From Escherichia coli (GTDB lineage Bacteria; Pseudomonadota; Gammaproteobacteria; Enterobacterales; Enterobacteriaceae), in assembly GCF_003334335.1 (NCBI RefSeq), contig NZ_QOWQ01000011.1: 64,000 nucleotides of DNA. The stretch is one strand, 5' to 3'. This document shows positions 52,931 through 53,045 of this stretch, in pieces. The notes under the pieces were generated by a model, which saw nothing but the letters and a program-made list of their open reading frames with translations, was not told the origin of the DNA and ran no database searches. The translations under genes and the position numbers were made by a program. Each line of letters starts with the position of its first letter. Position 1 is the stretch's first letter.

Positions 52931-53011
52931 ACAAAAAACCCATCAACCTTGAACCGAAATGGCGGGGTTGATGGGCTCCACAAAATGGGGACATCAAAGA
53001 AAAGCAGTGGC
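52931..53011 (-). ncRNA. rybB: sRNA RybB (sigma-E-dependent, Hfq-binding; represses OMP mRNAs)
   Basis: - strand reads GCCACTGCTTTTCTTTGATGTCCCCATTTTGTGGAGCCCATCAACCCCGCCATTTCGGTTCAAGGTTGATGGGTTTTTT (recognised RybB) ending in a terminator hairpin plus U-tract; ends approximate. Confidence 0.88.
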
Positions 53012-53045
53012 ACTAATTAAGACTGATGCCCTGCGGAAAAGTTCT
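53012..53045 (-). promoter_or_regulatory. Sigma-E promoter of rybB
   Basis: - strand GAACTT (-35), 16-nt spacer, TCTTA (-10) ending about 6 nt before the RybB 5' end. Confidence 0.65.

Follow-up and report, generated by a model that had tools for sequence, protein, structure and literature searches.

RybB, characterised since 2001–2006, belongs to the sigma-E envelope-stress response as one of its arms. In E. coli K-12, rybB reportedly yields a transcript of about 80 nt on Northern blots under sigma-E induction, with a sigma-E-induced triphosphorylated 5′ end at the +1 (position 53011 in the sequence analyzed here), and a rybB-lacZ fusion is sigma-E-responsive and sensitive to promoter mutations. 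This fusion is in use as a sigma-E reporter. A pulse of RybB changes the ompC and ompW mRNAs, and the 5′ end of the RNA reportedly functions as a seed, in work of 2010 by Papenfort and by Balbontin. Hfq binding and the repression of omp mRNAs by RybB have been described for a K-12 sequence that is the same as the one examined here (PMC1804206, PMC4102768), and the rybB promoter was found among the strongest sigma-E promoters (PMC4102768).

Among related systems, MicA (SraD) is like RybB in having a sigma-E promoter, in its use of Hfq and in repressing omp mRNAs through a 5′-proximal pairing region, and it shares with RybB the targets ompA, ompW, tsx and lamB. However, MicA has a different sequence and a different locus (luxS-gshA), and ompX is a target of MicA and also of CyaR (PMC8534726, PMC4618604, PMC8862304). 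MicL is likewise Hfq-dependent, is transcribed from a sigma-E promoter and lowers the load of abundant envelope proteins, but it is transcribed within the cutC coding region, is processed and has the single target lpp, whereas RybB is encoded by a free-standing intergenic gene and has many targets. A different kind of relative is provided by phage attachment sites at the 3′ ends of sRNA and tRNA genes (cyaR for P2-like phages, ssrA), where the core overlaps the end of the terminator and the phage copy regenerates the gene, as it does at rybB.

The locus considered here lies in a 64,000-nt stretch of E. coli DNA (contig NZ_QOWQ01000011.1, hereafter the window). The original prediction, made from the letters of the sequence, had placed RybB on the minus strand between rcdA and ybjL and had named the absence of an Rfam RybB match as its refutation. 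An Rfam 15 scan of the complete window at gathering thresholds gave three matches, the best of which was RybB (RF00110) at 52930-53008 on the minus strand, scoring 105.3 bits where the gathering score is 40 (E = 1.3e-20). The match covers positions 1-79 of the 79-position model and is not truncated. The curated K-12 annotation agrees, since the ncRNA rybB (b4417) of NC_000913.3, at complement 887979-888057, corresponds to 52933-53011 on the minus strand of the window. The gene and its neighbors, the latter as annotated in NC_000913.3, are as follows.

52933..53011, minus strand: rybB, 79-nt sRNA (b4417), running from the +1 G at 53011 to its 3′ end, the last U of the U6 tract, at 52933
52377-52913, plus strand: rcdA (ybjK), neighbor of rybB
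53088-54773, minus strand: ybjL, neighbor of rybB on the same strand

As is usual for the RybB family, the gene sits between rcdA (ybjK) and ybjL and shares the strand of ybjL, and rybB has been placed at this same location (PMC1804206). Read directly, the minus strand over 52700-53300 has a long ORF that ends in a stop codon, then a gap of 76 nt and then GCCACTGCTTTTCTTTGATGTCCCCATTTTGTGGAGCCCATCAACCCCGCCATTTCGGTTCAAGGTTGATGGGTTTTTT. BLAST aligned the full length of the window to NC_000913.3 835046-899046 at 99.986% identity; the differences are eight substitutions and a single 1-base deletion, all away from rybB. In a megablast search of 5,426 complete E. coli genomes, the 1.4 kb around rybB matched MG1655 and other K-12 strains at 100% identity, and a 191-bp segment across the rcdA-ybjL gap was covered to at least 80% in 5419 of the 5426. 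The RNA is therefore the one already annotated as b4417, base for base, as expected from its original description as a known element. In sequence, structure, length, strand, location, sigma-E promoter and terminator we found no difference from the described RybB RNA (RF00110, b4417).

Upstream of the RNA, the minus strand carries the elements of a sigma-E promoter.

53039..53044, minus strand: sigma-E -35 element GAACTT, -33 to -28
53018..53022, minus strand: sigma-E -10 element TCTTA, -11 to -7, 16 nt past the -35 element and 6 nt before the +1
53056..53072, minus strand: A/T-rich tract that may be UP-like, -61 to -45, GAAAATGAAATTTTTTT

The order aGAACTT, 16 nt, TCTTA, 6 nt and the +1 G at 53011 reproduces, at 53044-53018, the exact hexamer, spacer and pentamer that had been proposed from the raw sequence. 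This promoter fits the sigma-E consensus quoted for rybB, GGAACTTTT / GTCAAA, and the published sigma-E-dependent transcript begins at the rybB +1 (PMC1804206). Across both strands of the window (128 kb), the pattern GAACTT-N15-17-TCTNA matched only at the rybB promoter, against 0.16 matches expected, and 15 of 100 shuffled sequences contained at least one match somewhere. Taken alone, the GAACTT-N16-TCTTA motif is only suggestive, its rarity being insufficient for significance. It gains its weight because it stands at the correct distance from an independently defined RNA start, and because it is conserved.

Conservation was assessed with the RybB 5′ 20-mer, GCCACTGCTTTTCTTTGATG, as search key, one genome being scanned per species. 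The exact 20-mer was found in at least 120 Enterobacterales species, with a range, among the matches listed, that extends from Escherichia, Salmonella, Klebsiella and Enterobacter to Serratia, Yersinia, Hafnia, Proteus, Providencia and Xenorhabdus. The first 20 nt of RybB are invariant in this comparative set by construction, because they served as the search key. From these matches, 115 loci with enough flanking sequence were combined with the window copy into 116 sequences anchored at the +1. Among the matches listed, GAACTT occupies -33 to -28 in 115 of the 116 Enterobacterales species, and -11 to -7 reads TCnnA in all 116 (TCATA 52, TCTTA 32, TCTGA 24, TCTCA 5, TCCTA 3). Most columns of the spacer in the same 116 sequences are only 30-60% conserved. 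A run of T at about -50 to -45 is conserved at roughly 70-80% among these listed matches, compared with 30-50% in the adjoining columns, and the A/T tract upstream of the -35 element may thus be an UP-like element, as judged from its composition and conservation.

The RNA itself can be divided into an open 5′ region and a 3′ terminator.

52996..53011, minus strand: 5′ seed domain, nt 1-16, GCCACUGCUUUUCUUU, target recognition (function from the literature)
52978..52995, minus strand: U-rich single-stranded linker, nt 17-34, GAUGUCCCCAUUUUGUGG, near-invariant and without pairing in the Rfam consensus
52937..52977, minus strand: Rho-independent terminator hairpin, nt 35-75, whose 12-bp stem carries a branched apical part
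52933..52938, minus strand: U6 terminator tract and 3′ Hfq-binding tail, read from the sequence and conserved in the alignment

The 5′ end GCCACUGCUUUUCUUU is unpaired in the Rfam consensus, as is characteristic of the RybB family, and the minimum free energy (MFE) fold places just a weak 4-bp helix over nt 2-5, leaving the 5′ 34 nt mostly open. In an alignment of 106 distinct sequences (MAFFT/RNAalifold) from among the matches listed, nt 21-35, which lie outside the search key, were almost invariant. Such near-invariance is what one would expect if the seed and Hfq-binding region were under constraint. By analogy with Hfq-dependent sRNAs in general, the U-rich linker at nt 17-34 is presumed to be an internal Hfq contact.

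The 3′ half of the RNA bears out the hairpin and U-tract that the original prediction had described, with the stem at nt 35-75 and the U6 tract at 52938-52933. The 82-nt transcript region has an MFE of -25.2 kcal/mol (z = -3.32), and none of 200 shuffled sequences was as stable. In the 106 distinct sequences among the matches listed, the terminator helix is 98.8% paired, and seven of its pairs carry double-sided changes (e.g., A-U/G-C at 70:35 and C-G/U-A at 71:28). As a control, the 3′ partner was slid by 1-3 columns; pairing in these listed matches then fell to 27-66%, with 0-4 double-changed pairs, and extra pair types numbered 16 in the true register versus 4-10 in the slid controls. A simple terminator scanner that accepts only 3-8-nt loops did not return the RybB terminator, because the apical region exceeds that loop limit.

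The hairpin and U-tract might instead be taken as the terminator of ybjL alone, with the promoter a chance match and no sRNA gene between the two. The end of ybjL does lie 76 nt upstream of rybB on the same strand, and the scanner recognized no canonical intrinsic terminator (3-8-nt loops) for ybjL between its stop codon and the rybB promoter or +1, so that ybjL transcripts may also end at the RybB hairpin. However, such a reading leaves unexplained the 34-nt near-invariant unpaired segment 5′ of the hairpin, the full-length Rfam match, and a -35/-10 pair kept at a fixed distance in 115-116 of the 116 species among the matches listed while the spacer between them varies. The sigma-E-dependent transcript that starts at the rybB +1 (PMC1804206) also argues against it, and we consider a terminator without an sRNA gene extremely improbable. 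A coding function for the locus appears more improbable still. A mechanical six-frame listing does contain small ORFs that overlap rybB, one of 43 aa with a TTG start (52997-52866, minus strand) and one of 45 aa with an ATG start (52959-53096, plus strand). However, the 43-aa ORF begins inside RybB and crosses the terminator into poorly conserved sequence, the hairpin region contains indels across species, the substitutions there are paired stem changes and not codon-like among the matches listed, and the K-12 reference has no coding gene at this position. There is no sign of coding because conservation is poor beyond the terminator and the alignment contains indels, and the small-ORF reading was rejected on these points and on the stem-paired substitutions. 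The earlier statement that the locus holds no ORF was correct in substance, as none of the mechanical 43-45-aa frames looks coding.

The conservation of promoter, 5′ domain and terminator, together with the full-length Rfam match and the K-12 annotation, thus identifies the locus as rybB. That it is the E. coli K-12 rybB gene with its sigma-E promoter and terminator, encoding an envelope-stress sRNA that acts on omp mRNAs, is in our judgment virtually certain. Its identity, its boundaries, the anatomy of promoter and terminator, their conservation and the covariation of the stem are established by the present analysis, and the recognition of an sRNA and of a non-sigma-70 promoter from raw sequence is validated by it. 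The element is already known and nothing about its identity is new; the copy is identical to the K-12 reference and has no discovery value.

Transcription that continues from ybjL to the RybB terminator could produce a hypothetical sigma-E-independent ybjL-rybB 3′-UTR species carrying RybB, which we consider unlikely. Within the ybjL-rybB intergenic region, a GCCCTG (53077-53072) / CAGGGC (53033-53028) inverted repeat on the minus strand flanks the rybB -35 element. The repeat is E. coli-specific, and its GCCCTG arm is missing from the consensus of the 116 species among the matches listed. The 99-nt intergenic RNA folds with -28.6 kcal/mol (z = -3.04), and the repeat might affect the hypothetical ybjL read-through or access to the promoter.

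For the dependence on sigma-E and Hfq, the way the seed acts and the set of targets, we follow the literature on this same sequence. Under envelope stress, unfolded outer-membrane proteins would pile up, leading to degradation of RseA and the release of sigma-E. Sigma-E RNA polymerase would then initiate at G 53011 from GAACTT-N16-TCTTA, and transcription would end at the hairpin and U6 tract to give the 79-nt RybB. Once bound by Hfq, RybB would use the unpaired nucleotides at its 5′ end (nt 1 to about 16) to pair with many omp mRNAs, blocking their translation and speeding their decay; the targets reported in E. coli are ompC, ompW, ompA, ompF, tsx, fadL, lamB, nmpC and fiu. Fewer new porins would enter the envelope, which would act as negative feedback on sigma-E.

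The original prediction had also counted ompX, which is indeed present in the window, among the targets of RybB. Three features of the window bear on this point.

15405-15920, plus strand: ompX
4204-6486, minus strand: fiu, a published E. coli RybB target within the window
6556..6562, minus strand: CAGUGGC in the fiu leader, a candidate RybB seed site that complements RybB nt 1-7, 76 nt before the AUG

The claim for ompX did not hold. After a RybB pulse, ompX was one of two RybB-independent mRNAs, being stable or increased (Papenfort et al., 2006; PMC1804206), and the E. coli RybB targets of Gogol et al., in the form in which PMC8534726 (Table 1) and PMC4618604 present them, do not include it. 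RybB is named in passing among the regulators of ompX in just one secondary paper (PMC8862304), which elsewhere credits CyaR and MicA. We compared RybB nt 1-16 with the region from -200 to +60 of ompX, and the best duplex found there (-12.7 kcal/mol) was no better than background, for which the true seed against random 260-nt windows gave a mean of -12.3 kcal/mol (sd 2.3). Pairing between RybB and ompX was rejected on this background-level energy and on the 14.5% of shuffled seeds that equalled the duplex. The target claim is unsupported because the literature control, the absence from the target list and the background-level duplex all stand against it.

The RybB target in the window is fiu, not ompX. 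This gene is included in the E. coli RybB target list of Gogol et al., as relayed by PMC8534726 and PMC4618604. Its leader contains a perfect copy of the 7-mer CAGUGGC, which would be expected 0.02 times per 120-nt leader, and the best duplex of the RybB seed in the leader (-59 to -39) has -16.1 kcal/mol, at about the 5th percentile of the background. As a RybB pairing site in fiu, CAGUGGC is suggestive, not decisive, on these sequence grounds. The fiu leader (6600-6487) also contains GCAGUG at 6527-6522, complementary to RybB nt 3-8, and both GCAGUG and CAGUGGC lie downstream of an apparent Fur-box-like GATAATGCTTATCAAAATTATTATC.

The 3′ end of the gene very probably has a second role, one that does not conflict with its identity as rybB.

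52930..52943, strand not assigned: unoccupied attB core AACAAAAAACCCAT (plus-strand letters), site of a P2-like (Felsduovirus) prophage in other E. coli

The 14-bp core consists of the last 11 nt of RybB and 3 nt past its end. In E. coli GCEC19, a 32.9-kb P2-family prophage, running from ogr to int, is inserted between rybB and rcdA, with the tyrosine integrase at the end towards rcdA and ogr at the end facing rybB. The core AACAAAAAACCCAT recurs without change at both prophage junctions of this strain and in the empty site, with looser similarity reaching to 52918. The RybB sequence is unchanged in the lysogen, being regenerated by integration. Genes of the P2 family (tail genes, gpD, ogr) adjoin rybB in two interrupted E. 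coli genomes. The junction seen in GCEC19 recurs in an ST131 strain. A 1.4-kb interval (52300-53700) was contiguous in 4,293 of 5,423 E. coli genomes, and the remaining ~21% without a contiguous match include other, non-prophage breaks, such as an IS1 in rcdA in one genome. In 6 of 30 evenly sampled records, similarity stopped exactly at the RybB 3′ end.

That the 3′ end of rybB serves as a P2-like phage attachment site, at which the core copy brought by the phage restores RybB, is very likely in view of the 14-bp core at both GCEC19 junctions, the integrase at the end of the prophage and the published accounts. The "rybB ncRNA" has been listed among the sites at which P2-type elements insert, for E. 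coli W, B and Crooks, with the site empty in K-12 (Archer et al., 2011; PMC3032704), and the rybB site is hotspot #29, with Felsduovirus prophages (Hochhauser et al., 2023; PMC10121019). Integration at rybB was accordingly rejected as a new observation, both reports having preceded it. The site is empty in the window, so that attachment is a property of the site and nothing is inserted here. Compared with sites of the cyaR and ssrA type, the rybB site differs in being unoccupied here, and its perfect identity extends over 14 bp, with one lysogen examined in detail.

Besides the empty P2-like site at the rybB 3′ end, the treatment of rybB in public annotation is worth recording. The rybB feature is missing from E. 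coli RefSeq records annotated by PGAP, which list only the rcdA and ybjL proteins at this place, and is annotated only in the curated NC_000913.3. The sequence in the PGAP records is identical or nearly so at rybB. The omission is an annotation gap and no evidence against the gene.

Elsewhere in the window, single-base differences from NC_000913.3 occur at eight positions (13910, 22856, 23842, 27012, 31961, 35944, 50001 and 60503), and the window is thus of K-12 lineage and not identical to the MG1655 reference. The gsiB gene (34366-35902, plus strand), encoding the glutathione ABC transporter binding protein, has a 1-base deletion relative to MG1655 at about 34520-34521 (CAGGCCG to CAGCCG), which shifts the frame and leads to a stop at codon 53. 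A search of the 5,426 complete E. coli genomes did not find this deletion, the best matches all being 99.6% identical with one gap, and the change is accordingly a sequencing error or confined to the source strain.

Other K-12-annotated sRNAs in the window are zbiJ (about 2390-2486, minus strand) and rybA (about 17680-18019, minus strand), the latter overlapping mntS; the gathering-threshold Rfam scan of the window gave no match to either. In addition to RybB, the scan returned naRNA4 at 2543-2613 (minus strand, 78.4 bits) and ES036/CssrF at 22592-22634 (minus strand, 41.6 bits), each in an intergenic palindromic repeat of the REP/BIME type. The ES036 match is held by one copy of a pair of ~130-bp segments (10557-10687 and 22571-22697) that are 81% similar in inverted orientation and carry a REP-like GCCGGATGCGGCG...CGCCTTATCCGGCCTAC motif.
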